Assembly (NCBI GenBank): GCA_963737265.1
Contig: CAVTRY010000013.1
Span: forward strand, 230,933 to 294,932
Length of the DNA stretch: 64,000 nucleotides
Direction: 5' to 3'
From: an uncultured delta proteobacterium
Lineage (GTDB): Bacteria; Myxococcota_A; Polyangia; Fen-1088
Both the position numbers and the translations under genes were made by a program. The first letter of the stretch is position 1. Each line of letters starts with the position of its first letter. Positions 1,001 to 19,361 of this stretch are shown one piece after another. Under the pieces are notes generated by a model, which was not told the origin of the DNA, searched no databases, and saw only the letters and a list, made by a program, of their open reading frames with translations.

Positions 1001-2983
1001 TCAGAAATAGCCCATCAGCTCGGCCAGGGCCTCGGTGTAGAATCCGGTGGCGTTGCCGACGAAACGGAGCTGGCCCCAGCTTCCGAAATTGAGTGCCTGG
1101 CCCACGCTGACAACCGGGGCACGCCGCTCGTCGCCGAGGAAGTAGTAGATGTAGCGGCCCTCGGCTTCGGTCTGGAGAAAGCGTCCCAGCCGCAACACGA
1201 CGCCGGCAAAGCCGCCCAAGCCAACCCGGAGGTGCTGTTCAAAGGGGGCCCCCGCGGCCACGTCGGCATCGGTCATGACAAAGACCAGTACAGGATGCCC
1301 GAGCCGAAGTGCAATCCCGCCCCCGGTGTTGATAGCGCCGTAGCTGCAACGAAGCCCTGCACAGCCCAAGTTGCGGGCCTGGGCACCGCCGGCGCGGATG
1401 GTCCAGGCCGTCTTGGGGATCCAGCGATCGTAGCCGGAGACGGACAGGATGTTGAGCAGGTCGAGGCGCTCCGGAAACAAGGTCCGCGCTTGGTTTTCGA
1501 ACCGGACGCGAAGCTGCAGCATCTCCAGCTCGGCGTCGTCGAGGTAGCCGCGCGCGGGGTCGAGAAAATCATGCAGGGCCACGCGCAAAGAGAGCTCCTC
1601 GAAAGAAGCGTGTCCGCCGCCCGCCACGCCGCCCGCCATTCCCAGGCGCAGCGACCGGTGGCCCGTTTCCGGGGCATCGCTTGCCGCCGCAACCGCGGGC
1701 TCCAGCGGCGGCACGGAGGTTCGACCTCGCAGAATGAGGAGCTCGCGCTCTTTGCGCAGAAACTCGGCCGATGGCTCCTTGGTCAAGCCCTCGCGAAACC
1801 GCAAGAGATCGGATGCAGTATCGAGGATGCGCGCCTGCCTTTGCCTCGACCAGTCGGCGATGAGCCCCTGCGCCTCGCCTCCGTGCCGGCTCAGCGCCTC
1901 GACGACCTGGACCTCGCCGCCAGTCAACTGCGCCTTGCGCTTCAGCAACTGCGCACGCAGCGACGGCCGGACCGTGCGCGCTTTCACCAGGCCGGGAACG
2001 GATAGAATGGCGCGCAGGGTTTCGGTGGGCACGACTGGGCCGTGAAAGCGCTCGCTCAGCCGCAGGTCAGGATCCGCGACCTCGAGCAATTCGAGCAAGA
2101 AGTAGGAACAGTTCTCGGTAACGAAGTAGTAGTTGAAATGGGTGCTGCGGGTTTCCCAGGTGTGCGCCACCAGCCGTTCGGCCTGCACCTCGGTGAGCGC
2201 CAGCTCGTATTCCCACAGGTCACGGCTTTCGATGTGCGAGTACTCCTGAATCTTCACGTAGTACGGCATGACGTAGAAGTGGCCGGCAAAACCTCCGAAG
2301 ATTCCCCTCCACGCGTAGACGAGACCATTCTTGGTGTTCTCGTCGGCGGCAAAGTTGACGATGTAGTCGATGAGGCGATTGCCTTCTCCAGTTCGGCGGG
2401 TCAGGCGCAAAAAGGTGTGGCCGTACATCGAAGCCGGACTGTTGATGTAGGCGGACGAGTAGACGAACGCGACCTTCTCCGGCGCGATGGTCCGACGCCA
2501 CAGATCGAACATGGGACAGGGCTGCGCCGCAATACGTTCGGGATCGATGGCCAGCTCCTGTCGGAGCCAGGACCATCGCGCGGGAAAGCGACACTGCGCA
2601 TGCTGGCTGGACTCGTCGCTTGGGGCGCCGGTCTTGGCCCCTTCGGCAAAGGCGGCCAGGGTCGCCATCAATTCGGCTTCCGGATCGGTTTCGCCCGCAG
2701 CGCCGGCGAGAAAGAATCCCGGTCCGTCGGCGCTGCTGCGCCAGCCGCCGAGCAGGGTGGGGTGGTAGTGAAGCAAGACCTGCCACATCCGCGAATGCGC
2801 TAACCCGTGCGCTCGCGCATGCGCCTGCAACTCGGCCAGGTAAGGCTGTTGCGCCGCCGCGGCCGGTGATGGGCGCAGCCCGACGCTCGCACCAAGAACG
2901 GCAAGCCCCAACAGAAAAACGTCCAGGCATTCCGCTTGGGAGCGCCTGGACCATCGGTTGTGCGTGATGTTTGCGACGGCCAA
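1001..2983 (-). CDS. DUF4105 (Lnb N-terminal periplasmic domain)-like protein
   Basis: 660-aa ORF with an N-terminal hydrophobic segment. The motifs GHTFLRL and FYVMPYYVKIQEYSHIESRDLWEYEL match my recollection of the DUF4105 family. Confidence 0.7.
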   Translation of the reverse strand: MAVANITHNRWSRRSQAECLDVFLLGLAVLGASVGLRPSPAAAAQQPYLAELQAHARAHGLAHSRMWQVLLHYHPTLLGGWRSSADGPGFFLAGAAGETDPEAELMATLAAFAEGAKTGAPSDESSQHAQCRFPARWSWLRQELAIDPERIAAQPCPMFDLWRRTIAPEKVAFVYSSAYINSPASMYGHTFLRLTRRTGEGNRLIDYIVNFAADENTKNGLVYAWRGIFGGFAGHFYVMPYYVKIQEYSHIESRDLWEYELALTEVQAERLVAHTWETRSTHFNYYFVTENCSYFLLELLEVADPDLRLSERFHGPVVPTETLRAILSVPGLVKARTVRPSLRAQLLKRKAQLTGGEVQVVEALSRHGGEAQGLIADWSRQRQARILDTASDLLRFREGLTKEPSAEFLRKERELLILRGRTSVPPLEPAVAAASDAPETGHRSLRLGMAGGVAGGGHASFEELSLRVALHDFLDPARGYLDDAELEMLQLRVRFENQARTLFPERLDLLNILSVSGYDRWIPKTAWTIRAGGAQARNLGCAGLRCSYGAINTGGGIALRLGHPVLVFVMTDADVAAGAPFEQHLRVGLGGFAGVVLRLGRFLQTEAEGRYIYYFLGDERRAPVVSVGQALNFGSWGQLRFVGNATGFYTEALAELMGYF

Positions 2984-3530
2984 CTAGCGCTTGGCTAAGG
3001 TCGTCGATAACTTGCCTTCGGCGCGGGCGATGGCCCGCTCGTCGGTGCAGCTTGCCGCAAGCGACGGCGATGCCTTGATCTGCTGCTTGACGCTCATGAG
3101 CATCTGGATGGGCGTGGTTGAGGTGCTGGGCACCAGTGTCTCGATCTTGTCCTGGGTCATCCTTGCGAAGGTCGGCTTGGCCGAGTCCTCGCAACCGAGC
3201 AGCGTAGCGAACGAAGCGAGGTACTCACCACCCCCGGCCGCCATGTTGGCTTTCAGATCTTGGAAATTGACCTCGGCGAACGCGGCCTGTTCGCGCTCGG
3301 CCTTGATGACCCCGCCGCTGACGCAGTTCGAAGTCCCAGATGTGATGCCGAAGGTTTGCGTACCAAAGAGACCATTGGTGGTGGCAGCAAGGACCTGCTT
3401 GAACATCGTTTGGTCGTTGCCAAACGCGATCGAATCCCAGGCCGCATCCAGCCATTCCGTATGGTTGTGCGTGGGCCGAGCCTGCAACGGACAGGGCTAA
3501 CATTCCTACTGCAAGTGCGAGTGTCTTCAT
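2984..3530 (-). pseudogene. DUF3015-family secreted protein with an apparent +1 frameshift near 3433
   Basis: The signal peptide and MAGCGLG motif (MKTLALAVGMLALSVAGSAHAQPYGMAGCGLG) are in one frame. The rest (SIAFGNDQTMFKQVLAATTNG...FGITSGTSNC) is in another. The frames join at CTGGGA[T]TCGATC. Confidence 0.65.
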
Positions 3531-4130
3531 GGATTCAATCCTCCAACTCTAGTTACGACCGCATCCAGTAGACCCACCGTGGGTCGTCCCATGCATGCGG
3601 TGCGATGATTCTACTGAGGTTCGCTACACGTGCAATCATTGACTGAAGACGTGTCCATCAATCGCTCTCGTCGCCCGTCCGGCTGCGCAGCCCGCCCGCT
3701 TCGTTTCTCCTCGCTTACATAGCGCCATTTTTCCTTCACCAAATCGCGCTCTCGGATCCATAATAGAAGGCGTCACGTAGGTCTGGGCACCTGATCTACC
3801 CCCTACCCAGGCATTCACGGCGCGGTCATGGAAGCGCCCAAGCGTGTACCTGGCCTGTTGGACGAGGTACGAAGCCCGATGGCGCACGCCCGATTTTGCG
3901 AGCTCGGATTCTGGTTTGTCGGTAATAATAAAGAGCCTCTTTCCAGTTTCGGTCGTTGAAGAACCACTTCCTTGGTACGTCGAGGCCGACGATAGGAAGA
4001 GAAGGGGGGTGCGTCAATCGGAAAAGCAAACCGCTTCGTTGCACAGGCGCGACACAAGCGCACTGGATCGAGGCATGGCTTGCGTCGTCCTTGCCCGCTC
4101 GTACGTGCTGTGGCATGGTGATACGTACGC

Positions 4131-6782: not shown

Positions 6783-7697
6783 ATGAGAAGCAGCATCGAG
6801 GTGGAGAATTTCAGCAAGCTCTACGGCGAATTCCGGGCCGTCGACGACATCTCCTTCAGCGTGGAAGAAGGATCCATCTTCGCCTTCCTGGGCCCCAACG
6901 GGGCGGGAAAAAGCACCACCATCACCACCCTCTGCACCATCCAGCACAAGACGCGCGGGACGTTGCGGATCAACGGGAACGACGTGACCACGGAGCAGGC
7001 GAAGGTCCGCAAGGACATCGGGATCGTGTTCCAGGAGTGCACGCTGGATTCCAAGCTCACGGTGCGCGAGAACTTGAAGCTCCATTGCGACTTCTACGCC
7101 GTGCCCAAATCGGAGATCAAGGACAGGATCCAGTTCGTGCTGGGGCTCGTGGACATCGAGGAGTGGCGGAACGCGCCGGTCGGCGCCCTGTCCGGGGGCC
7201 TGAAGCGGCGCGCGGAAATCGCACGGGGATTGGTCCACTTCCCCAAGGTCCTGTTCCTGGACGAGCCCACCACGGGTCTCGACCCCCAGACCCGCGCCAA
7301 TGTCTGGGACTACATCAAGAAACTCCAGAAGCAGAAGAACATCACCATCTTCCTCACGACCCACTATCTGGAAGAGGCGGAGATCTGCGACCAGGTGGCC
7401 ATCATCGACCATGGGAAGATCGTGGCGCACGACACTCCGTACAATCTCAAGAAGCAGCACACCCGGACCACGACCAGGATCAAGACCTCCGACCCGGAGC
7501 CCCTGCTCCGGTATTGCGCCGAGAAGTCGCTCCCCGTCGCCAGGGAGAGCGAGGGGATTTCGATCACGTCGACGGACATCGGCGCGGTGATGGACCTCGT
7601 TGCCATCTTCAAGGATTCCATCCAGGACCTCGAAATCAACAAGGGAAAGCTCGACGACGTCTTCATTTCCCTGACCGGCAAGGAGATCCGAAACTGA
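6783..7697 (+). CDS. ABC transporter ATP-binding protein (ABC-2/DrrA-like exporter)
   Basis: Walker A GPNGAGKST, signature LSGGLKRR and Walker B LFLDEPTTGLD are all present. Confidence 0.9.
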   Translation: MRSSIEVENFSKLYGEFRAVDDISFSVEEGSIFAFLGPNGAGKSTTITTLCTIQHKTRGTLRINGNDVTTEQAKVRKDIGIVFQECTLDSKLTVRENLKLHCDFYAVPKSEIKDRIQFVLGLVDIEEWRNAPVGALSGGLKRRAEIARGLVHFPKVLFLDEPTTGLDPQTRANVWDYIKKLQKQKNITIFLTTHYLEEAEICDQVAIIDHGKIVAHDTPYNLKKQHTRTTTRIKTSDPEPLLRYCAEKSLPVARESEGISITSTDIGAVMDLVAIFKDSIQDLEINKGKLDDVFISLTGKEIRN

Positions 7698-8527
7698 TGC
7701 GCGCTATTCGAGCGATCCTGGCGAGGAACCTGATCAAGTTCTTTCGCGACAAGATGCGGTTTTTCTTTACGCTGTTCATGAGTGGGTTCCTGCTTTTCGC
7801 CTTCTCGTTCGTGATGAAGTCGGCCGTCGCTGGTGTGGCGCACCCCATGAGCTACCTGGTCTCGGGCATCATCATCATGACCGTGTTCCAGACGGCGCTG
7901 AACAATTCCATGAGCATCCTGGAGGACATCTCCACCGGCTTTATGAAGGAGATCCTGGTGGCACCCATCGCCAGGTGGCAGATCGCCGTCGGACAGGTCC
8001 TGTCTTCCGCGGTCCTGGCGGTCCTACAAGGCATCATCGTCCTGGTGGTGGGGGTCTTCATGGGCCTCAACCTGGATCTGGTTCACTTCGTCCTGATGGT
8101 GTGCCTCATGCTGCTGGTGGGGGTTACCTTCAGTTCCCTGGGACTCTTCCTCGCGGCGCTGTCCAAGGAATCCACCACATTCCAGATCATGATCTCGGTC
8201 GTGACCATGCCTCTCACGTTCCTGTCGGGCGCCTACATTCCCACCACGGTGCTCCCCGCCGTGCTGCGACCGATCGTCTACTTGAATCCCCTGACCTACG
8301 CCACCTCCATGTTCCGCTACACCGCGCTTCACCTGGAATCCATGACCACGCCTGAGTTGGTCAAGGCGGGCGTGGCTTTCGACATCCACGGGTTCGTGGT
8401 GCAGCCCTACGGCGGGGTGCTGATCACCCTGGCCATCGGCGCGACGTTCTTCGGCCTTTGCGTAAACCAGTTCCGCAAGGCCGACTTCTCGCGCGTCACC
8501 GTGTTCAAGCGAGGACAGCACCGGTAG
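7697..8527 (+). CDS. ABC-2 type transporter permease
   Basis: The ATG overlaps the ATPase stop (TGATG). The product is a multi-pass hydrophobic protein. The part of the long 7037..8527 ORF upstream of 7697 overlaps the ATPase gene and is discarded. Confidence 0.85.
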   Translation: MRAIRAILARNLIKFFRDKMRFFFTLFMSGFLLFAFSFVMKSAVAGVAHPMSYLVSGIIIMTVFQTALNNSMSILEDISTGFMKEILVAPIARWQIAVGQVLSSAVLAVLQGIIVLVVGVFMGLNLDLVHFVLMVCLMLLVGVTFSSLGLFLAALSKESTTFQIMISVVTMPLTFLSGAYIPTTVLPAVLRPIVYLNPLTYATSMFRYTALHLESMTTPELVKAGVAFDIHGFVVQPYGGVLITLAIGATFFGLCVNQFRKADFSRVTVFKRGQHR

Positions 8528-8567
8528 TGATGGCGCGTGCGGCCGCGCATCGCCTGACCATCCGTGG

Positions 8568-8816
8568 TGATCCCCGACCGAGGGTAGTTTCGTCGTCGCC
8601 CTGATCCCCGACCGAGGGTAGTTTGGGTGCCGTGATCCCCGACCGAGGGTTGGTGATCCCCGACCGCGTCGTGATCCCCGACCGAGGGTAGTTTGGGTGC
8701 CGTGATCCCCGACCGAGGGTAGTTTGAGCCGATCCCCGACCGAGGGCAGTTTCGTCGTCGTAGCGTCCGGAATTCGTCCCGGTGATCCCCGACCGAGGGT
8801 AGTTTCGTCGTCGTAG
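8568..8816. repeat. array of 8 degenerate direct copies of the left terminal repeat TGATCCCCGACCGAGGGTAGTTT
   Basis: Copies start at about 8568, 8602, 8633, 8654, 8672, 8703, 8730 and 8783, with irregular spacing of 18-53 bp. The short inter-copy tails (cgtcgtcg, gggtgccg) are themselves repeated. Confidence 0.85.
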
Positions 8817-8922
8817 ATGATCCCCAGGGTAGGTTCGTCGTCGTAGCGTCCGGAATTCGGACGTACCTTGTGCCGTTCGGGGGACATCATCGCCCTCCCA
8901 AAGTACCCCCGGATGCGGAATC
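8817..8922. mobile_element. MITE-like element, copy A (imperfect 23-bp terminal inverted repeats)
   Basis: The left end is TGATCCCCAGGGTAGGTT and the right end is AAAGTACCCCCGGATGCGGAATC. The core cgtcgtcgtagcgtccggaattcggacgtaccttgtgc.gttcgggggacatcatcgccctccc is shared with copies B and C. Confidence 0.7.
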
Positions 8923-8995
8923 CAACCGAACCGCGCCTCGGCGGAGGGCGGGGAGATGCAGACTAGCTAGGAGGAGACGGACATCCAGGTTCCGG

Positions 8996-9259
8996 CTACG
9001 CCTCGACGAGCAGCACCAGTGTCTCGGCCAGCACCCCATCGTGCGCCATCGCCTCGGCGGCACCTGGCGTGCTCATCGCGGTCTTGAGAGCATTCATGTC
9101 AGGAACCTCCATTAGCACCCCGACGCGAGTCGGATTCTGCGGGTCGACGAATTTACGAATGCCACTGACACCGAGGGGACCGAAAAACTTCTCCCGCATG
9201 GGCGAGGCGAGCCAATGCTTGGTGTCCTTCACGTGATGACAGCCGATGACGGCGGGCAT
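8996..9259 (-). CDS. hypothetical 87-aa protein carried between MITE copies
   Basis: Clean ORF (MPAVIGCHHVKDTKHWL...LVLLVEA) with no overlapping repeat. I do not recognise a family with confidence. Confidence 0.5.
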   Translation of the reverse strand: MPAVIGCHHVKDTKHWLASPMREKFFGPLGVSGIRKFVDPQNPTRVGVLMEVPDMNALKTAMSTPGAAEAMAHDGVLAETLVLLVEA

Positions 9260-9363
9260 GTTCTATCTCCTACGCAACGCATCTCCTACGCAACGCACGC
9301 GTTGGCGCCGCAGATGTGTTGTGAAAATCAAACCGCTGGTTTGATTCGCTACCTCACCAAAGC

Positions 9364-9518
9364 CATCCCCGACCGAGGGTAGTTTCGTCGTCGTTTGATC
9401 CCCGACCGAGGGTAGTTTCGTCGTCGTAGCGTCCGGAATTCGGACGTACCTTGTGCTGTTCGGGGGACATCATCGCCCTCCCAAAGTACCCTCGGATGGG
9501 GATCTGGGATGGGGAATC
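9364..9518. mobile_element. MITE-like element, copy B, preceded by one extra left-repeat copy
   Basis: An extra left repeat lies at 9364-9395. The full unit spans 9396-9504 and has the same core as copies A and C. An additional GGGATGGGGAATC stutter extends to 9518. Confidence 0.7.
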
Positions 9519-9664
9519 TGACTCGCGATCTGCCTCGGCCTATCGCGCGCCACGCGCGAGCTTGCCATCGCCGGCATCAAGCAGGCGAATCCTGGCCGCA
9601 TTCTCCCGGACCACGAGCTTCGCGAGAAGCTCGCCGAGCGCCTCTACGGTGCCGGTGATCCCGC

Positions 9665-9774
9665 TGATCCCCGACCGAGGGTAGTTTCGTCGTCGTAGCG
9701 TCCGGAATTCGGACGTACCTTGTGCTGTTCGGGGGACATCATCGCCCTCCCAAAGTACCCTCGGATGGGGAATC
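9665..9774. mobile_element. MITE-like element, copy C
   Basis: Nearly identical to copy B: TGATCCCCGACCGAGGGTAGTTT...AAAGTACCCTCGGATGGGGAATC. Confidence 0.75.
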
Positions 9775-9945
9775 TGATGGGGAATCTATGGGGAATCTAA
9801 AGTACCCTCGGATGGGGAATCTGGATGGGGAATCTAACATCTCGGATGGGGAATCTAACATCATCGCCCTCCCAAAGTACCCTCGGATGGGGAATCTGGG
9901 AATCTAACATCATCGCCCTCCCAAAGTACCCTCGGATGGGGAATC
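9775..9945. repeat. array of about 8 partial direct copies of the right terminal repeat (..GGATGGGGAATC)
   Basis: The motif (T)GGGGAATCT recurs from 9776 to 9945. Two longer 41-bp copies read taacatcatcgccctcccaaagtaccctcggatggggaatc. Confidence 0.85.
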
Positions 9946-10049
9946 TAGGGACGGCCTGCCCACAGCACCTTGGACAACCCTGTGGGTTGCCCACATGCCC
10001 ACAGCCACAGCAACGACTTTTTGTGTAGAATCAGATCCGGATCACAAAA

Positions 10050-10112
10050 CGTCACGGGGGGCGACATTTTCACTGAACCGTTGAGGGGTGACATTTTCAC
10101 TGACCTAAGACA
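10050..10112. mobile_element. solo right end of an IS21-family-like element
   Basis: There are two direct repeats, GGGG(C/T)GACATTTTCACTGA, ending in ..AAGACA. This is the same architecture as the right end of the intact IS21-family element at 13590-13651. No transposase genes are attached. Confidence 0.5.
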
Positions 10113-10168
10113 CGAAGGTGGCGAGAGGTTGACCTGAGATCCGGCGCGGGCCATCATGGCCTGGCCAC

Positions 10169-10630
10169 ATGCTGGATCTCTACGACGAGTTCGCGGCCCT
10201 TATCGGCGCGCTGGAAGCAGCGGGGGCCGAGTACGCCGTGTGTGGCGGACTGGCCATGGCCATCCATGGTCTCCCCAGGGCAACCATCGACGTCGATCTC
10301 GTCGTTCCGCCGAACGCCGCCGAGCGTGTGCTCGCCTGCGCGCGCGACCTCGACTATTCGATTCCCGCAGACCCCATGAGCTTGGCCGGTGGGGCAGTCG
10401 AGATCAGACGCGTGACGAAGATCGATGCGGCTTCCGGCGACCTGCTCAGTCTGGACCTGCTTCTCGTGACCCCGGCCATTGAGCGCATCTGGAGGCAAAG
10501 AACGCGTGTTCGCTGGGAGCGGGGCGAGCTGTGGGTGGTTTCGCGCCAGGGCCTGGTAAGCCTCAAGCGCCTGCGCGGTTCGGGTCAGGACCAGGACGAC
10601 ATCAAACGCCTCGAAGGAGACGGAGAATGA
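10169..10630 (+). CDS. nucleotidyltransferase-fold protein (AbiEii/DUF6036-like)
   Basis: The 153-aa product contains YAVCGGLAMAIHGLPRATIDVDLVV, the G-G...D-x-D minimal NTase motif. Confidence 0.6.
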   Translation: MLDLYDEFAALIGALEAAGAEYAVCGGLAMAIHGLPRATIDVDLVVPPNAAERVLACARDLDYSIPADPMSLAGGAVEIRRVTKIDAASGDLLSLDLLLVTPAIERIWRQRTRVRWERGELWVVSRQGLVSLKRLRGSGQDQDDIKRLEGDGE

Positions 10631-11044: not shown

Positions 11045-11158
11045 CCCCAATAACAATCCGACTCGCTGATCAGTTCGGCAGCGATGACCTTGAGCTTGGC
11101 GTCGCCCATGGCCTGCACGGCGCTGTTGTTGGCAGCCAGGGCGTCGTAGAAGGCGACC
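11045..11158 (-). pseudogene. hsdR: type I restriction enzyme R subunit, 3' fragment (left of the IS21 insertion)
   Basis: The translation FYDALAANNSAVQAMGDAKLKVIAAELI continues the LGLTDDEVA found right of the IS. Similarity is lost after about 11060, so the 3' end is deleted. Confidence 0.7.
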
Positions 11159-11270
11159 TGCTGAGCGACAATTACATCTCCCCAAAGACGACAGCTACGT
11201 CGCCCCGCTTTGAGGCGCGACGGTGACCGTGAGGTAGACCTCCAAGCCCGCAAGCGGGCAGGAGGCACCT

Positions 11271-12770
11271 TTGAAGCCGGTCACCGACGCCCAAGTGAGG
11301 CGTTTGATGGAAGAGATGAGCAAGATTGGAAAAGTAGGCCAGGCCGCCATGAAGGCGGGCATGGACCGGAAGACAGGGCGGCGATACATCGCCGCGGGCA
11401 AGCTACCGTCGGAGCTACGGCAGCCGCGGTGGTGGCGGACGCGCCCTGACGCGTTCGCCGAGGACTGGCCAGCCGTGGCCAAGTTGCTGGAGGAAACGCC
11501 TGGGCTGGAGGCTCAGACGGTGCTGGAGCTGCTGGAGGCGAAGCAGCCAGGGCGGTACAACGAGAGCCATCTTCGGACAATGCAGCGGCGAATCCGTCGC
11601 TGGCGGGCCGAGCATGGTCCTGCGCGTGAGATTTGGTTCACGCAGGCGCATCGGCCCGGTGAAGCCGCGCAAACCGACTTCACGTCGACGGCGGAGCTTG
11701 GTGTGACGATCGTGGGCCAGCTATTTGTGCACCTTTTGTGCGTGACGGTGCTGCCGTACTCGAACTGGCAATGGGCGACCGCGTGTCTGTCGGAGTCTCT
11801 GGCAGCGCTTCGGCGAGGGATCCAGTCGGCGCTGTTCCAGCTTGGGCGGGTGCCGCGATACCACCAAACCGACCACTCGACGGCGGCGACACATCAGATC
11901 GCTCGCGATGCGGAAGATCGCACTTTCAACGATGAATACAAGGCGGTCATGCGGCACCTCGGAATGGAGGCACGAACTACAGCCGTCGGGGCCAAGGAAC
12001 AAAACGGCGATGTGGAGGCCAGCAACGGCGCGCTCAAGCGTCGGCTTGAACAAGCGTTGCTGGTGCGTGGCAGCCGCGACTTCGCGGACCAAGACGACTA
12101 CGAACGCTTCGTAGCCAAGGTGGTCCGCAAAGCCAACGCTTCGCGAGGCCCGCGCGTCGCCGAGGAGATCGAAGCCATGCGGCCGCTGGTGGTGGAGCGT
12201 TTGCCGGAGTACGCAGAAATGACGGCACCTGTGGCGTCGACGAGCACCATCCGGGTCAAGTCGTGCGCCTACTCGGTGCCGTCGAGGCTGATCGGCGCAC
12301 GGGTGAGAGTCCGCGTGTTCGAGCACCGAATCGAGGTGTACTACGCCGACAACTTGGAATTGGCCTGCGACAGGCTGCGAGGCAAGACCGCGCGCATCGA
12401 CTACCGGCACGTCATCTGGTCTTTGGTGCGCAAGCCGGGCGCGTTTTCTCGCTACGTCTACCGAGAAGAGCTGTTTCCAAGCGTGACTTTCAGGCGGGCA
12501 TACGACGCGATCCAGGCGACCAAGCCTGGAATCAAAGGCGACGTTGAATACCTGCGCATTCTTCACCTGGCCGCCAGCACGATGGAAGCCGATGTCGAGC
12601 AAGCGCTCACGACTCTGCTTGCCGATGGGACCATCTTGACGGCGGATGCAACCAAGAAGAGATGCACACAGGCGACGGACAGTACCTATCCACCGAGCGT
12701 CCCCGCGCTCGAAGCACCGCTGGTCGATCTCGCGTCCTACGACCTGCTCCTCGAACAGGTGGCATCATGA
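11271..12770 (+). CDS. istA: IS21-family transposase IstA
   Basis: 499 aa with an N-terminal HTH, a DDE integrase core and a TTG start. Its stop overlaps the istB ATG. Confidence 0.9.
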   Translation: MKPVTDAQVRRLMEEMSKIGKVGQAAMKAGMDRKTGRRYIAAGKLPSELRQPRWWRTRPDAFAEDWPAVAKLLEETPGLEAQTVLELLEAKQPGRYNESHLRTMQRRIRRWRAEHGPAREIWFTQAHRPGEAAQTDFTSTAELGVTIVGQLFVHLLCVTVLPYSNWQWATACLSESLAALRRGIQSALFQLGRVPRYHQTDHSTAATHQIARDAEDRTFNDEYKAVMRHLGMEARTTAVGAKEQNGDVEASNGALKRRLEQALLVRGSRDFADQDDYERFVAKVVRKANASRGPRVAEEIEAMRPLVVERLPEYAEMTAPVASTSTIRVKSCAYSVPSRLIGARVRVRVFEHRIEVYYADNLELACDRLRGKTARIDYRHVIWSLVRKPGAFSRYVYREELFPSVTFRRAYDAIQATKPGIKGDVEYLRILHLAASTMEADVEQALTTLLADGTILTADATKKRCTQATDSTYPPSVPALEAPLVDLASYDLLLEQVAS

Positions 12771-13615
12771 CCAACGTCTCCGTAGACACGGTCAAGCCGA
12801 GCGCGCTCGACGCTCTGCTGGTGCTTCTGCGCGCGCTCAAGCTGCCTGCCTTCACCCGGCACGCCGAGGAGATCGCGATCAAGGCCAGCCGCGAGGGGTG
12901 GACCTTCAGCCAATACCTCCAGCACCTGGCCGAACTGGAAATCGAAGAGCGCCGAACCCGTCGCATCGATCGCGCGCTTCGCGATTCGGACCTTCCCACG
13001 GAGAAAACCCTGGCCACCCTGGAACGTGGTCGGCTGTCACCCAAGGTGATGAAGCAGATGGCGAGCCTGTGTGAGGGTGGCTTTGTCGAACGTGGGGAGA
13101 ACCTGCTCGTCTTCGGACTGCCCGGCCGAGGCAAAAGTCACGTTGTGGCTGCCATCGGCCACGAACTCATCCGGCGCGGCTACCGGGTCCTCTTCACGCC
13201 GACCTTCGCGCTTGTCCAGAGGCTGCTGGCCGCCAAGCGCGACCTTCGCCTGGAACGAGAACTGGCCGCGCTCAACATCTATCACGCCGTGATCCTCGAC
13301 GACATCGGCTACGTCCAGCAGAGCCGCGATGAAATGGAGGTCCTTTTCACCTTCCTGGCCGAGCGGTACGAACGCAAGAGCGTCCTCATCACCAGCAACC
13401 TGGTCTTCAGCGATTGGATCCGCATTTTCAAGGATCCCATGACCACCGCCGCCGCCATCGACCGACTGGTCCACCACGCGGTCATCCTTGAGATGACCGG
13501 CCCCAGCTACCGCAGCGAAGAAGCACGAAAGAGAGGCGTCACCACCCCAGCGACAACTACGACAACTACCGATCAACCAACGACAACTACCCCCGACAAC
13601 AATGGGGCGATGTAA
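12767..13615 (+). CDS. istB: IS21-family helper ATPase IstB
   Basis: Walker A GLPGRGKSH, Walker B VILDDIGY and the IstB-like AAA+ layout are present. Confidence 0.9.
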   Translation: MTNVSVDTVKPSALDALLVLLRALKLPAFTRHAEEIAIKASREGWTFSQYLQHLAELEIEERRTRRIDRALRDSDLPTEKTLATLERGRLSPKVMKQMASLCEGGFVERGENLLVFGLPGRGKSHVVAAIGHELIRRGYRVLFTPTFALVQRLLAAKRDLRLERELAALNIYHAVILDDIGYVQQSRDEMEVLFTFLAERYERKSVLITSNLVFSDWIRIFKDPMTTAAAIDRLVHHAVILEMTGPSYRSEEARKRGVTTPATTTTTTDQPTTTTPDNNGAM

Positions 13616-13651
13616 TTGACGTCACCGGGTGAATGTAGTTGACGTCCAGCA

Positions 13652-15060
13652 GCGACCTCGTCATCGGTCAGGCCCAGTTCTTCCCCGCGCTTGCCCGCGG
13701 CTTCCACTTCCTTCGCCAGCTTGATGAGCTCTTCGATGACCTCCTGGGTGGCGATGGCGCGGTTGTGGTAGGCGTTCAGAGCCTTCTTGAGCTTCTCGGA
13801 GAACAGCTCGGACTGCACCAGGTCGCGCTTGGCGCGGACCTTGATCTCATCTTTGAGCAGTTTCGCCAGTAGCTCGGCGGCGACGTTCTTGTGTTTGAGG
13901 CCGCGCACCTCGGCGAGAAACTGATCGGACAGGATGCTGATGTCGGGCTTCTGCAAGCCAGCCGCGGTGAAGACGTCGATGACTTGACCATCGGTCGTAA
14001 TCGCCATGGACACGAGCTGGCGGATGGCGGCGTCGATTTGCTCGGGCGACTTGGCGCTGGTACCACTCTTCTTGTTCAGTGCCGATTGAATGGCCTGGAA
14101 AAAGGCAATGTCATCGTGAATCTCCTCGGCTTCATCGCTGGCCGAGCACAGGGCGAAGGCGCGAGACAGCTCGGTCACCACCTGCACGAAGCGTTGCTTG
14201 CCATCTTCCTGCGAGAGGATGCGCTCCTGGCCGGCCGGGAGAAGCGCCAGCTTCTCGGCTGGCTTGCCGGCGGTCCATTTGTCCCAATCCAGCCCGTGCA
14301 GCATATCGCTGGCGATGCCGTGCTTCTCGAGCATGACGGCAATGGCCTGCTTCGGATCGTGGGCGGCCTCACCCTTGCCGCCGCTTTCCGTGTAGGTCGC
14401 CAGCGCGTGCTTCAGCTGGTCGGCCAGGCCAAGGTAGTCGACCACCAGTCCGCCCGGCTTGTCGCGGAAGACGCGGTTCACGCGCGCGATGGCCTGCATC
14501 AGGCCGTGTCCGCGCATCGGCTTGTCGGCTTACATCGTGTGCAGACAAGGGGCATCGAAACCGGTCAGCCACATGTCGCGCACGATGACGATGCGGAACG
14601 GATCCTTGCTGTCTTTGAAACGGACCGCCAGCTTGCGCCGCCGATCTTTATTGCGAATGTGCGGCTGCCATTCCGGCCCGTCGTCCGCGCTGCCGGTCAT
14701 GATCACCTTGACTACGCAGGCTTTACCCTTGTCGGCCTCGGCGTCGTCCGACCCTGCCCAGTCCGGCCGCAACTTGATCAGCGCCTCGTGCATGGCCACG
14801 CAGATGCGGCGGCTCATGCAGACGATCATGGCCTTGCCGTTCATCGCCTCCACGCGCTTGCCGAAGTGGGCCACCAAGTCGGCGGCGACAACCTTCAAGC
14901 GCTTTGGGTCACCCACCAGCGCCTCCAGTGCGGCCCACTTGCTCTTCAGCTTCTCGCGATTCGACTGCTCCTCGCCTTCGGTGATTTCGTCGAACTCCTC
15001 GTCCAGCTTGGGCAGCTCGGCGTTGTTCAACGAAAGCTTGGCTGCCAGGGCTTCGATGAA
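13652..15060 (-). pseudogene. hsdR: type I restriction enzyme R subunit, central/C-terminal fragments (5' truncated, in-frame TAA, IS-interrupted)
   Basis: [25 protein letters not shown]...[15 protein letters not shown], then TAA (14530-14532), then ADKPMRGHGLMQAIARVNRVFRDKPGGLVVDY...LGLTDDEVA. The helicase motif V-VI region is present. The nuclease and DEAD domains are missing. Confidence 0.85.
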
Positions 15061-16952: not shown

Positions 16953-19361
16953 ATGAGTTTGTCCTCAGCAACCCCCCCAGCCGAGGTATGTCTCATGGCA
17001 GTAACCGTCATGTTAGGTGACCCGGGAAAGCATCTCGAATGTTGTGATCGCGGACTGTTATTGGGATGCGTGATGCTCCTCTTGACGGCACCAGCCTGCA
17101 GCTCTCCCAAAATCGTCGGCAATGGCGCAGCTGGAGGTCAGGGCGGAGGCGGCGGTGGGGTGGGTGGCAGTCCCGCCGGAGGCGGCGGCACGGGGGTCGT
17201 CATTACCATTTCCACCGGCGGAGACGCTGGCACCGGTTCAACCGACATCAAGAAATGCGGCGACGGCGTCCTCGACCTGGGCGAGGGATGCGACGATGGC
17301 GTCGCACCTATAAAGAAGATCAGGAGCGCCGACAATCCCAATCCCATCGATGATGGCTGCAATGCACTTTGCCAGGTTGAGTCGGGTTGGGCGTGTCCAA
17401 CCGCGGGACAGCCTTGCATCGACCAAAGGGTGTGTGGTAACGGCGTTCTGACTCCCAACAAGGAATGTGACGACGGAAACACGGTGAGCGGCGACGGCTG
17501 CTCGTCGACCTGCCAGTCCGAGGCGGGTTACCGGTGCCGGCTTCCCGGAAAGCCGTGCAGCATCCTATGCGGGGACGGCATCATCAAGGCACCCGAGCAA
17601 TGCGATGATGGTAACACCGTCGGCGGTGACGGCTGTTCTTCGGGTTGCAAAGTAGAGGCTGGCTTTCAGTGCAGCGGTACCCCTAGCGTATGCAAGCCAA
17701 CCGTTTGCGGCGACGGCATCGTCGAGGGCTCCGAGGGATGTGACCTTGGTCAAGGCAAGAACCTACCCGGCAGTGGCTGCTCGCCAACCTGCCACCTCGA
17801 GCCGAACTGCAGTGCGGCCTCGGGCCAGTGCACCTCGACGTGCGGAGATGGACTCGTTGTCAACGAAGGATGCGACGATGGCAACACGGTGAGTGGCGAC
17901 GGTTGCTCATCGAGTTGCAAGGTCGAACCCGGCTTCCAGTGCAGCCAGCCCGATGCCAATTCTCCGACCATGACCGTGCCGGTCACCTACCACGACTTTC
18001 TCGTGGGCGGCGATTTCCACCCGGCCGACGTCCAAGGCTCCAACCTTGCCGTTGTCGGCCTCGTTAACGACACTCTCGACAACGAAGGCAAACCGGTGTT
18101 TGCCGGTGCGCCAGGCGACGGCCACATCACGAGTGCGGACAGCTTCCACCAATGGTACAGGGACGTGGCGAAGGTCAACACGCCCTACGTATCGACCATC
18201 CTGCTGCACAACAACGGCAATGGCGCCTACGTGAACTGGTGGAAGGACAATCAACAGTGGATCGAGCAACTCAACCCTCGGTGGTGCTCCGATGCGACCT
18301 GCGCCACTTGCAACCCTCCGGCCTACGTGGCGGGCCCGACGACCGCGTGCTTGGCCCAATGCACGCCGTGGGGGATAGGCAGCACCAATCCCTGCGCGGT
18401 CGACCTCCAGATGGTCGATGGAAACCCGCTCTTCTTCCCCCTCGACAATATCCCGGGCATGATCACGCCGACCACCGCGTACGCGCCCGGCCAGGTTCCA
18501 CCCCTGTACAGCGGCGGCGGCTGGACCTGGGAGGCGGGCGGCGCCGCTGCCCCCCAGCACAACTTCAGTTTCACCAGCGAGGTACGCTATTGGTTCAGCT
18601 ATCAGACAAACAAGAAATATGTCCTCGATTTCGCGGGTGACGACGATGTTTGGGTCTTCGTCAATCGCAAGCTGGCGGTAGACCTGGGAGGCATCCACAC
18701 CCCTGTCGCGGGGCACTTGGCGTTCAATGCGACCGGAGGCGGGACTGTTGCCATTACCCCGACCGAGGGTGCCGCCTGCAAAACGCAGGGCGCCGTGGCA
18801 ACCTGCACCACTTCCCCGCCGACGACGGCGAATTTCGGCATGGTGAACAACGGCGTCTACGAGATCGTCGTGTTCCAGGCGGAACGATGCTGGAACGGAT
18901 CGACGTACAAACTCACGCTGAGCGGCTTCAATGATGCTCCAAGCAGTTGTGTGCCGACGTGTGGCGATGGCATCGCGGTGGCCAGTGAGGAATGCGACTG
19001 CGGTGACGGAACCGTGCCTGTCCCGGCAGGCTGCCCAGGTCCGAACAGCGACAGCGCGTATGGTGGCTGCACGACAAAGTGCACGTGGGGTCCATTCTGT
19101 GGAGATGGCGTGGTCAATGGTTCAGAGGAGTGCGATCTCGGCAAGGAGAATGGCACGGACGTGAGTCCAGCGGGATGCTCCTTCCAATGCACGAAGCCTC
19201 ATTATTGTGGCGATGGCGTTCTCGATACGGATCTGGGCGAGCAGTGCGATATGGGCTCCCTCAATGGACAGACATTGGACGCCAGTGGGAGCCCAACGAC
19301 CGATCCTAGCGGCCAGGTATGGTGCAGTAGTGCCTGCGAGATTGTGATGGTACCGTTCTAG
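16953..19361 (+). CDS. secreted fibro-slime-domain protein flanked by myxobacterial Cys-rich (DUF4215-type) repeats
   Basis: Lipoprotein-like LLLTAPACSS. At least 8 repeats of CGDG..(E/Q)CDDGN..GDGCS..C. The central block VPVTYHDFLVGGDFHP...DDDVWVFVNRKLAVDLGGIH is PA14/fibro-slime-like. The true start may be the ATG at 17010. Confidence 0.85.
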   Translation: MSLSSATPPAEVCLMAVTVMLGDPGKHLECCDRGLLLGCVMLLLTAPACSSPKIVGNGAAGGQGGGGGGVGGSPAGGGGTGVVITISTGGDAGTGSTDIKKCGDGVLDLGEGCDDGVAPIKKIRSADNPNPIDDGCNALCQVESGWACPTAGQPCIDQRVCGNGVLTPNKECDDGNTVSGDGCSSTCQSEAGYRCRLPGKPCSILCGDGIIKAPEQCDDGNTVGGDGCSSGCKVEAGFQCSGTPSVCKPTVCGDGIVEGSEGCDLGQGKNLPGSGCSPTCHLEPNCSAASGQCTSTCGDGLVVNEGCDDGNTVSGDGCSSSCKVEPGFQCSQPDANSPTMTVPVTYHDFLVGGDFHPADVQGSNLAVVGLVNDTLDNEGKPVFAGAPGDGHITSADSFHQWYRDVAKVNTPYVSTILLHNNGNGAYVNWWKDNQQWIEQLNPRWCSDATCATCNPPAYVAGPTTACLAQCTPWGIGSTNPCAVDLQMVDGNPLFFPLDNIPGMITPTTAYAPGQVPPLYSGGGWTWEAGGAAAPQHNFSFTSEVRYWFSYQTNKKYVLDFAGDDDVWVFVNRKLAVDLGGIHTPVAGHLAFNATGGGTVAITPTEGAACKTQGAVATCTTSPPTTANFGMVNNGVYEIVVFQAERCWNGSTYKLTLSGFNDAPSSCVPTCGDGIAVASEECDCGDGTVPVPAGCPGPNSDSAYGGCTTKCTWGPFCGDGVVNGSEECDLGKENGTDVSPAGCSFQCTKPHYCGDGVLDTDLGEQCDMGSLNGQTLDASGSPTTDPSGQVWCSSACEIVMVPF

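Follow-up and report, generated by a model that had tools for sequence, protein, structure and literature searches.

Hairpin units with stutter arrays at their ends in a Myxococcota contig and their probable relation to a divergent RAYT-like transposase family

A block of 1.4 kb in the 64 kb stretch of contig CAVTRY010000013.1 analyzed here (hereafter, the window) contains three hairpin-forming repeat units, the outer sides of which are lined by piled-up partial copies of the unit ends, referred to in the following as stutter arrays (window 8566-9946). We consider it probable that these units are non-autonomous miniature inverted-repeat transposable elements (MITEs), built as REPIN-like doublets of two terminal inverted repeats (TIRs), that belong to a family of Y1 transposases related to RAYT and TIRYT proteins, and that the arrays are duplication scars of motif-guided nicking, resynthesis and resealing at the unit ends. 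The arrays themselves are terminus-anchored nested duplications that occur family-wide, are polar and fast-changing, and have their junctions at a preferred distance from a conserved motif.

Hairpin units, stutter arrays and the associated transposase family

Repeat finding identified three full hairpin units of approximately 105-111 nt (Table 1), the arms of which, TGATCCCCGACCGAGGGTAGTTT and AAAGTACCCTCGGATGGGGAATC, are 22 nt long and 86% complementary. The core palindrome, GTCCGGAATTCGGAC, has three exact occurrences and one degenerate copy, and the fold of unit C as single-stranded DNA is a single long hairpin (-25.7 kcal/mol, z -2.6). When up to three mismatches were permitted, the left-arm 22-mer matched the window 11 times and the right-arm 22-mer six times (shuffled sequence: 0 for both), while neither was found outside the block anywhere in the 64 kb. 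A preliminary description of this DNA, made from the letters alone, had noted three element copies with imperfect TIRs and a palindromic core within 1.4 kb; these copies are confirmed, and the view of them as non-autonomous, TIR-bearing, MITE-like units is supported. The polarity reported there, with extra copies of only the left TIR to the left of unit A and of only the right TIR to the right of unit C, is likewise borne out, with eight copies on each side. Along unit C, the copy number of 8-mers is 10-11 at the left terminus, drops to 2-3 in the core and climbs back to 9-10 at the right terminus, and units B and C each show one small stutter per inner-facing end (Table 1).

Table 1. Features of the block and its surroundings (window coordinates)
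Feature	Position	Strand	Remarks
ABC ATPase gene	6783-7697		upstream of the block
ABC-2 permease gene	7694-8527		upstream of the block
Left stutter array	8568-8817	+	eight left-arm copies, outer-anchored, cut at differing inner points
Fragment F1	8568-8601	+	left array
Fragment F2	8602-8632	+	left array
Fragment F3	8633-8653	+	left array
Fragment F4	8654-8671	+	left array
Fragment F5	8672-8702	+	left array
Fragment F6	8703-8730	+	left array
Fragment F7	8731-8782	+	left array
Fragment F8	8783-8817	+	left array
Unit A	8818-8922	+	left arm, GTCCGGAATTCGGAC hairpin core, right arm; 5-nt deletion in left arm; 87% identical to B and C
87-aa open reading frame (ORF)	8996-9259	-	between units A and B; no family hit; last 36 codons homologous to related locus L064, 7151-7263
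Partial left-arm copy	9364-9395	+	directly outward of unit B; Tandem Repeats Finder (TRF): 33-nt period, 100% match
Unit B	9396-9505	+	complete hairpin doublet; its right-arm variant, GATCCCCATCCGAGGGTACTTT in reverse complement, is identical to the left end of transposase locus L036
Short imperfect stutter (GGGATGGGGAATCT)	9506-9519	+	of the unit B right terminus
Gene fragment	9522-9655	+	codons 24-68 of an 80-aa gene; both sides cut by unit termini
9-nt head-only copy (TGATCCCGC)	9656-9664	+	directly outward of unit C
Unit C	9665-9775	+	complete hairpin doublet; 100% identity with unit B across 107 nt
Right stutter array	9776-9946	+	eight nested perfect tandem duplications, each including the right terminus ...GGGGAATCT
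Nucleotidyltransferase gene	10169-10630		downstream of the block
IS21-family element	11166-13621		1.2 kb right of the block; IstA 11271-12770 (rve and Mu-transposase C domains), IstB 12662-13615

When perfect tandem duplications were stripped one by one, eight steps reduced unit C plus the right array (298 nt) to exactly one unit and its flank, with the placement of the boundaries almost fixed; the periods removed were 8, 11, 12, 13, 21, 24, 41 and 41. Because this reduction is complete and no duplicated block lacks the right terminus, the right array consists of tandem duplications, nested in one another and anchored at the element end, that are recent and still perfect. In the left array, all eight fragments open with (T)GATCCCC and carry tails of 1-8 nt (CCC, GGGTGCCG, TGG, CGTCG, GAGCC, TCCCGG, A), and after GTTT they continue in three ways (GTTTCGTCG, GTTTGGGTGCCG, GTTTGAGCC).

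Exact 20-mers of the repeat, which forms a single cluster in the 64 kb, were detected at 12 loci in metagenome contigs. The same scan returned nothing from viral contigs and 185,579 species-representative genomes, plasmid and phage collections yielded no blastn match to the unit, and an Rfam scan of window 8300-10300 at E<=1 gave no match. Most of the 12 loci are single hairpin doublets with the same arms, often with an internal hairpin CGTCCGGAATNCGGACG, and nine units, which come from five contigs and have spacers of 8-65 nt, can be aligned. At three loci (L002 840-870, identical to L007 12087-12120 and to L011), a unit of the window family is immediately bordered on its outer side by a truncated left end of another, transposase-type kind (CTCTCCGAGGGTACTTTTCGCGCAAC; …CCGAGGGTACTTTTCGCGCAAC), present in two copies, and therefore ends of different paralogue families cluster together.

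On one metagenome contig, L009, the full copy in a left stutter array is identical to the left arm of the window at 22 of 22 nt. This array is followed by a 316-aa ORF and then, in inverted orientation, by a right stutter array that extends as far as the contig end, the whole taking up about 1.5 kb; the left array reduces to a single copy upon removal of three perfect tandem duplications. The preliminary description had suggested a search for an autonomous element with the same TIRs and a transposase, and L009 is an autonomous-looking relative of this kind.

The 316-aa ORF matches the NCBIfam model NF047646, 'REP-associated tyrosine transposase', over positions 4-144 of 146 (E 5.6e-9), with a score of 36 bits that lies below the curated cut-off of 80 bits. 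Sequence searches of Pfam and the PDB had no hits, either with the protein alone or with an alignment, and there were no Pfam hits among the members of the family alignment (A1). Alignments revealed an invariant H60-x-H62 and an invariant Y120, the tyrosine lying within KM[VT]YA[YF][AT]NP (KMVYAYANP in the L009 ORF), and hhalign aligned this motif with the Y115 motif of E. coli RayT. An AlphaFold model of the ORF has a mean pLDDT of 77.7, exceeding 90 in the N-terminal half, and its best Foldseek match in the PDB is 4ER8, the E. coli RAYT-REP complex (E 5e-5, target TM 0.75), followed by the ISDra2, IS608 and IS200 transposases. The relationship to RAYT is thus visible only by NCBIfam, by structure prediction with Foldseek, and by hhalign. 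Given the NF047646 match, the HUH and tyrosine motifs, the hhalign result and 4ER8 as best structural match, the L009 protein is a divergent Y1/HUH transposase that is closest to RAYT and has an extra helical C-terminal half.

This protein has at least 1989 close homologues, some of them named RayT by JGI, and a profile search of a 50%-identity library recovered 969 clusters at E<=1e-30, nearly all of about 300 aa and aligned end to end. The protein family thereby defined is large, with about 1000 clusters at 50% identity, and lies outside Pfam coverage. All 38 genome loci are from Myxococcota—uncultured Myxococcales/Polyangia metagenome-assembled genomes (MAGs), Kofleriaceae, Nannocystaceae and the cultured Enhygromyxa salina (33-38% identity)—although this limit is provisional, as the scan of representative genomes used two peptide patterns. 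Genomes hold several diverged paralogues, 60-75% identical to the query, with at least six in one MAG.

Most of the genes at these loci, including those of cultured E. salina, have on either side mirror-image arrays made up of partial copies of their own ends, anchored at the terminus and truncated inwardly, in which the terminal 8-mer reaches up to about 20 copies; inverted cognate repeats flank the transposase gene in L009, L013, L019, L033, L034, L036, L047 and others. The termini read GGGGATCA, GGGGAATC or GGGGTTCC; the paralogues share an inner motif, CCGANGGTA, and differ in the outer 10-11 nt, the 'head'.

Perfect tandem duplications of at least 7 nt were counted in 34 loci, comparing the 600 nt upstream and 600 nt downstream of each gene with gene bodies and far flanks. 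There were 64 upstream and 35 downstream, as against one in the gene bodies and four in each of the two sets of far flanks, an enrichment of about 15-fold over neighboring DNA of equal composition. Their period is 11 nt in the median (range 7-44), and 70 of the 99 flank duplications contain the commonest 7-mer of the flank in question. The motif lies inward of the duplication or inside it in 61 events and outward in seven, and the junction falls exactly 11 nt outside CCGANGGTA in 30 of 55 events, where uniform positions would give 4.6. As a control, the flanks of rayT in E. coli MG1655 were inspected; they consist of ordinary REP/BIME (repetitive extragenic palindrome/bacterial interspersed mosaic element) sequence and have no such duplications.

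Arrays also differ between samples in which the protein is identical: the upstream array of L019 and L024 differs from that of L020, and downstream L013 has three copies and L015 one. In L019 (2781-3000; also L024 506-725), a left-array copy spans the terminus, the 5' untranslated region and the first 12 or so transposase codons, and is missing from L020. L024 additionally harbors a DDE (DDE_Tnp_1) insertion sequence (IS) inside the right stutter array of its transposase locus (1945-3790), an apparent short remnant of which is found at the same point in L020.

How the arrays may have arisen

In the favored reading, which we hold to be probable, the enzyme would first recognize and bind the conserved inner motif CCGANGGTA and then nick about 11 nt outside it, on the strand reading 5'-head-CCGANGGTA-3' (also written 5'-head-CCGAGGGTA-3'). 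This would be the top strand at the left arm and the bottom strand at the right arm, which would give rise to the mirror symmetry. A polymerase would next extend the 3'-OH of the flank over a short and variable distance, displacing the tyrosine-linked 5' end, and in the final step the enzyme would join the nascent 3' end to the displaced end, resealing the strand. Each such cycle would yield one terminus-anchored, inwardly truncated copy just outside the motif-bearing copy. Copies below about 20 nt would be inert since they lack the motif, which fits the right array, in which every short head-only copy is found directly on the outer side of a longer one that bears the motif. Because the window encodes no transposase of the Y1 family, the units must in this scheme be acted on in trans, presumably by a family copy elsewhere in the genome, which would be expected to have the ends GATCCCCGACCGAGGGTAG and GATTCCCCATCCGAGGGTAC. 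Fragments may sometimes also be joined in from other copies, as the heterogeneous left array and the truncated transposase-type ends in L002, L007 and L011 suggest.

In vitro, RAYTs cleave single-stranded DNA near REP sequences, at more than one nearby site, producing a 5'-phosphotyrosine and a free 3'-OH, and another 3' end can resolve the covalent intermediate (PMC8266576, PMC3333891). Such cleavage and joining in vitro is all that is shown, for the E. coli and Stenotrophomonas enzymes (PMC3333891, PMC8266576); tandem arrays of whole REPINs have been noted, with no mechanism given (PMC3337134). We advance only tentatively, as a possibility that we would not yet bet on, the wider proposal that the reaction of this Y1 family is replicative and starts at the ends ('nick - short copy - reseal'), and that the arrays are a log of its catalytic cycles. 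If this were true, the arrays would record the position of cleavage (11 nt outside CCGANGGTA), the strand cleaved and the coupling to DNA synthesis, and the reaction mode, which is not described for RAYT or IS200-type enzymes, would provide a natural read-out of repeat copying by RAYT-like enzymes.

With regard to how RAYT-type domesticated transposases spread repeats, the scars of this family, which lie on both sides of its genes and on non-autonomous derivatives and are in some cases young enough to be perfect copies, give testable predictions on cleavage site, strand and DNA synthesis. For annotation, they explain a class of odd intergenic 'stutter' repeats in Myxococcota that are rearrangement-prone and likely to be mis-assembled.

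Several observations weigh against this reading. Nicking, extension and resealing are all deduced from sequence, and tblastn located no transposase of the Y1 family within the 64 kb, so that action in trans is an assumption. Single arms do not behave as hairpins: as single-stranded DNA, six arms had z values of -0.25 to +1.13, no better than shuffles, whereas known Y1 substrates fold. The outer junction is not strictly fixed, being found also 12 to 17 nt outside CCGANGGTA, and there is no conserved cleavage dinucleotide at the duplication junctions (compare the cut between C and T of E. coli RAYT). The left array could not be reduced to tandem duplications, either with exact matching or with 13% mismatch allowed, and its odd tails and three continuations after GTTT are not predicted by purely local copying. 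Finally, the differences in array length between samples could partly reflect collapse in short-read assemblies.

The features of the left array are those on which repeated one-ended or abortive transposition would rest, in which variable, terminus-anchored single-stranded fragments from other elements are pasted beside existing termini. Its three continuations match spacer variants in L001, L004 and L006, and the truncated copies of a different transposase-type left end (…CCGAGGGTACTTTTCGCGCAAC) directly outside a unit in L002, L007 and L011 point the same way. However, the right array and the L009 array are completely explained by local perfect duplication of adjacent sequence, and the inner ends of the array fragments have no common cleavage motif. 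We therefore regard one-ended transposition as an unlikely account of the arrays as a whole, which may coexist with local duplication instead of replacing it. The preliminary description had offered, as one of two readings, repeated self-targeted insertion or abortive transposition of the element into its own ends; the right array does not show insertions of whole elements, while abortive processing at the element's own ends comes close to the data.

Perfect short tandem duplications are also the classic product of replication slippage, and instability independent of any enzyme—slippage, or unequal exchange between short direct repeats, set off perhaps by the hairpin or a tightly bound protein, with no nicking by a transposase—would accommodate both the larger block duplications that are present as well (70-nt and 49-nt periods) and the somewhat fuzzy outer junction. 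It would not lead one to expect the accumulation of junctions 11 nt outside a conserved motif in paralogues with differing terminal sequences, nor arrays that strictly mirror each other across genes of 1 kb, over which a hairpin cannot form. Considering also the enrichment of duplications over neighboring DNA of the same composition, and E. coli REP/BIME flanks that are without any, we judge this explanation to be improbable.

The other reading in the preliminary description, a composite DDE transposon with multiple transposase-binding sites at its ends in the manner of Tn7, Mu or IS21, finds some encouragement in a site of about 22 nt that is directly repeated at both ends in inverted orientation, and in the IS21-family element nearby. 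That element, however, has unrelated TIRs, and an intact gene lies between it and the block. Truncated copies in the arrays can be as short as 8 nt and follow one another at irregular intervals, array length varies between near-identical loci, and the gene carried between such arrays elsewhere encodes a Y1/HUH rather than a DDE enzyme. The stutter arrays are not arrays of binding sites but variable nested tandem duplications that all include the outer arm terminus, and we reject the composite transposon as very improbable. Equally hard to credit is an assembly artefact of a repeat-rich region, for although tandem arrays can come out at the wrong size in short-read assemblies, the architecture is shared by more than 30 independent assemblies (JGI, ENA, NCBI), including isolate genomes and megabase-scale MAG contigs, and fragments of distinct lengths in a unique order are not something that assemblers invent.

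Enclosed sequence, related loci and neighboring genes

Both an 87-aa ORF and a gene fragment are enclosed by the units, as the preliminary description had stated. The ORF is probably host DNA and no part of the element. Immediately upstream of its start, on the minus strand, is a perfect 16-nt tandem duplication (ATCTCCTACGCAACGC, two copies, window 9265-9297) that doubles the GGAG ribosome-binding stretch of the ORF. The 80-aa gene from which the fragment derives is intact in the Polyangia MAG locus L064 (6667-6909), where a precomputed annotation gives it a weak Rv0078B (PF18993) hit that was not reproduced in a separate Pfam scan. Locus L063 has another copy of the fragment (205-278), 4.7 kb upstream of the ABC transporter.

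As judged by the ABC-transporter genes, L063 and L064 are the nearest related loci, with 92% and 91% nucleotide identity, respectively (the L064 figure being that of the permease). Both diverge from the window right after the stop codon and are rearranged there, and L064 has no units at all downstream of the permease. Neither a precise empty site nor a target-site duplication, for both of which the preliminary description had proposed to compare related loci, can be defined against these two. Window 8932-9108 matches the end of a chimeric 95-aa ORF in L064 (7151-7438, minus strand), in which the final 36 residues from a homologue of the window 87-aa protein have been fused to an N-terminal part that is ParE/RelE-like by eye and has no Pfam hit. 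The existence of this chimera indicates that the region downstream of the ABC transporter has been rearranged in several lineages.

Two segments of the window, 8932-9108 and approximately 9520-9655, occur in reversed order relative to L064, and both are bounded directly by unit termini. This order may have arisen by way of a circular intermediate or by duplication and deletion; L064 does not look ancestral either. With neither locus appearing ancestral, only two conclusions are drawn from the comparison: the units are insertions within a variable region, and they are associated with neighboring deletions and rearrangement.

To the right of the block, an inverted repeat TTTTGTG...CACAAAA followed by two direct copies of GGGG[CT]GACATTTTCACTGA, 27 nt apart, precedes the nucleotidyltransferase gene (window 10019-10103); this arrangement may be an operator, and its motif does not recur elsewhere in the window. 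The IS21-family element farther right has TIRs of 19 nt (11166-11184 and 13603-13621; 89% complementary) unrelated to the block arms, and splits a type I restriction hsdR gene into fragments on the minus strand (approximately 11067-11165 and 13573-14517). A link between the block and this element was rejected on account of these TIRs and the intact gene in between. A 14-nt arm match (CCCCGACCGAGGGT) at window 18757-18770, within the coding sequence of an 802-aa DUF4215/PA14 protein, is probably due to chance. In L004, a left-arm copy is located about 215 nt past the alignable end of a homologue of the gene for this 802-aa protein.

Comparison with known systems

Two classes of repeat array can be set aside. 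An integron attC array was rejected, as inspection by eye of the unit C termini in both orientations revealed no AAC/GTT core pair (R''/R' sites RYYYAAC ... GTTRRRY), and a CRISPR-like array was rejected as well, since repeat spacings of 18-53 nt leave no spacers. Terminus-anchored truncated arrays are not mentioned in the RAYT, REPIN and TIRYT literature searched, a search that was incomplete, so that an earlier description elsewhere is possible.

The resemblance to rolling-circle Rep proteins and relaxases, which are also HUH enzymes, is a mechanistic analogy only: the proposed nick with formation of a 5'-phosphotyrosine, strand-displacement synthesis and rejoining have counterparts there, whereas the family is not a member of these groups by sequence or structure, and synthesis would here stop after about 8-40 nt.

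With the IS200/IS605 transposases (IS608, ISDra2), which cleave at a set distance from a subterminal element, act strand-specifically on single-stranded DNA and generate no target-site duplications, the family shares its catalytic fold (Foldseek). However, no guide or target tetranucleotide was identified here, the ends are not hairpins, and paralogues are 60-75% identical to the query, so that there are no multiple identical IS copies. In IS608, moreover, the end hairpins are on the same strand and excision produces a circle, while the ends described here are inverted, with one active end per strand.

Similarities to the REPtron and REPIN-RAYT systems (E. coli TnpA_REP, PDB 4ER8; Pseudomonas fluorescens REPINs) are more extensive. 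They comprise a Y1/HUH enzyme with a RAYT-like tyrosine motif, a gene flanked by inverted cognate repeats, a GTAG/GTAC box in the arm and a presumed action in trans on dispersed copies; like REPINs, the units are non-autonomous doublets of two inverted arms that form a long hairpin and occur at several loci. In contrast to REPtron enzymes, the Myxococcota protein is, at about 300-316 aa, twice as long, has a helical C-terminal half and goes undetected by Pfam. Its arms are not palindromic hairpins, whereas a REP is an imperfect palindrome of 20-40 nt that folds alone. Genomes here have several diverged paralogues, with an apparently low repeat copy number, and the nested truncated duplications at the termini have no equivalent at the E. 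coli rayT flanks.

TIRtrons, the elements of TIRYT proteins (Di Nocera et al. 2013, PMC3733652; subclass 2.1 of Quentin et al. 2018, PMC6006769), likewise have RAYT-like genes flanked by TIRs instead of REP hairpins, as well as longer proteins with extra C-terminal domains and TIRs that sometimes form small families in dimers or clusters. They differ in that the published TIR consensus, GGGGWSAS, does not fit the termini GGGGATCA and GGGGAATC, that the helix-turn-helix domains of subclass 2.1 were not detected in the Myxococcota family (no Pfam hit in A1), and that stutter arrays are not described for them (PMC3733652, PMC6006769). Taken together, the enzyme and the layout of gene and inverted repeats work like a REPtron and the units like REPINs, but the arms are not REPs; because single arms are not hairpins, the family is closer to the TIRtron/TIRYT class than to the REPtron.

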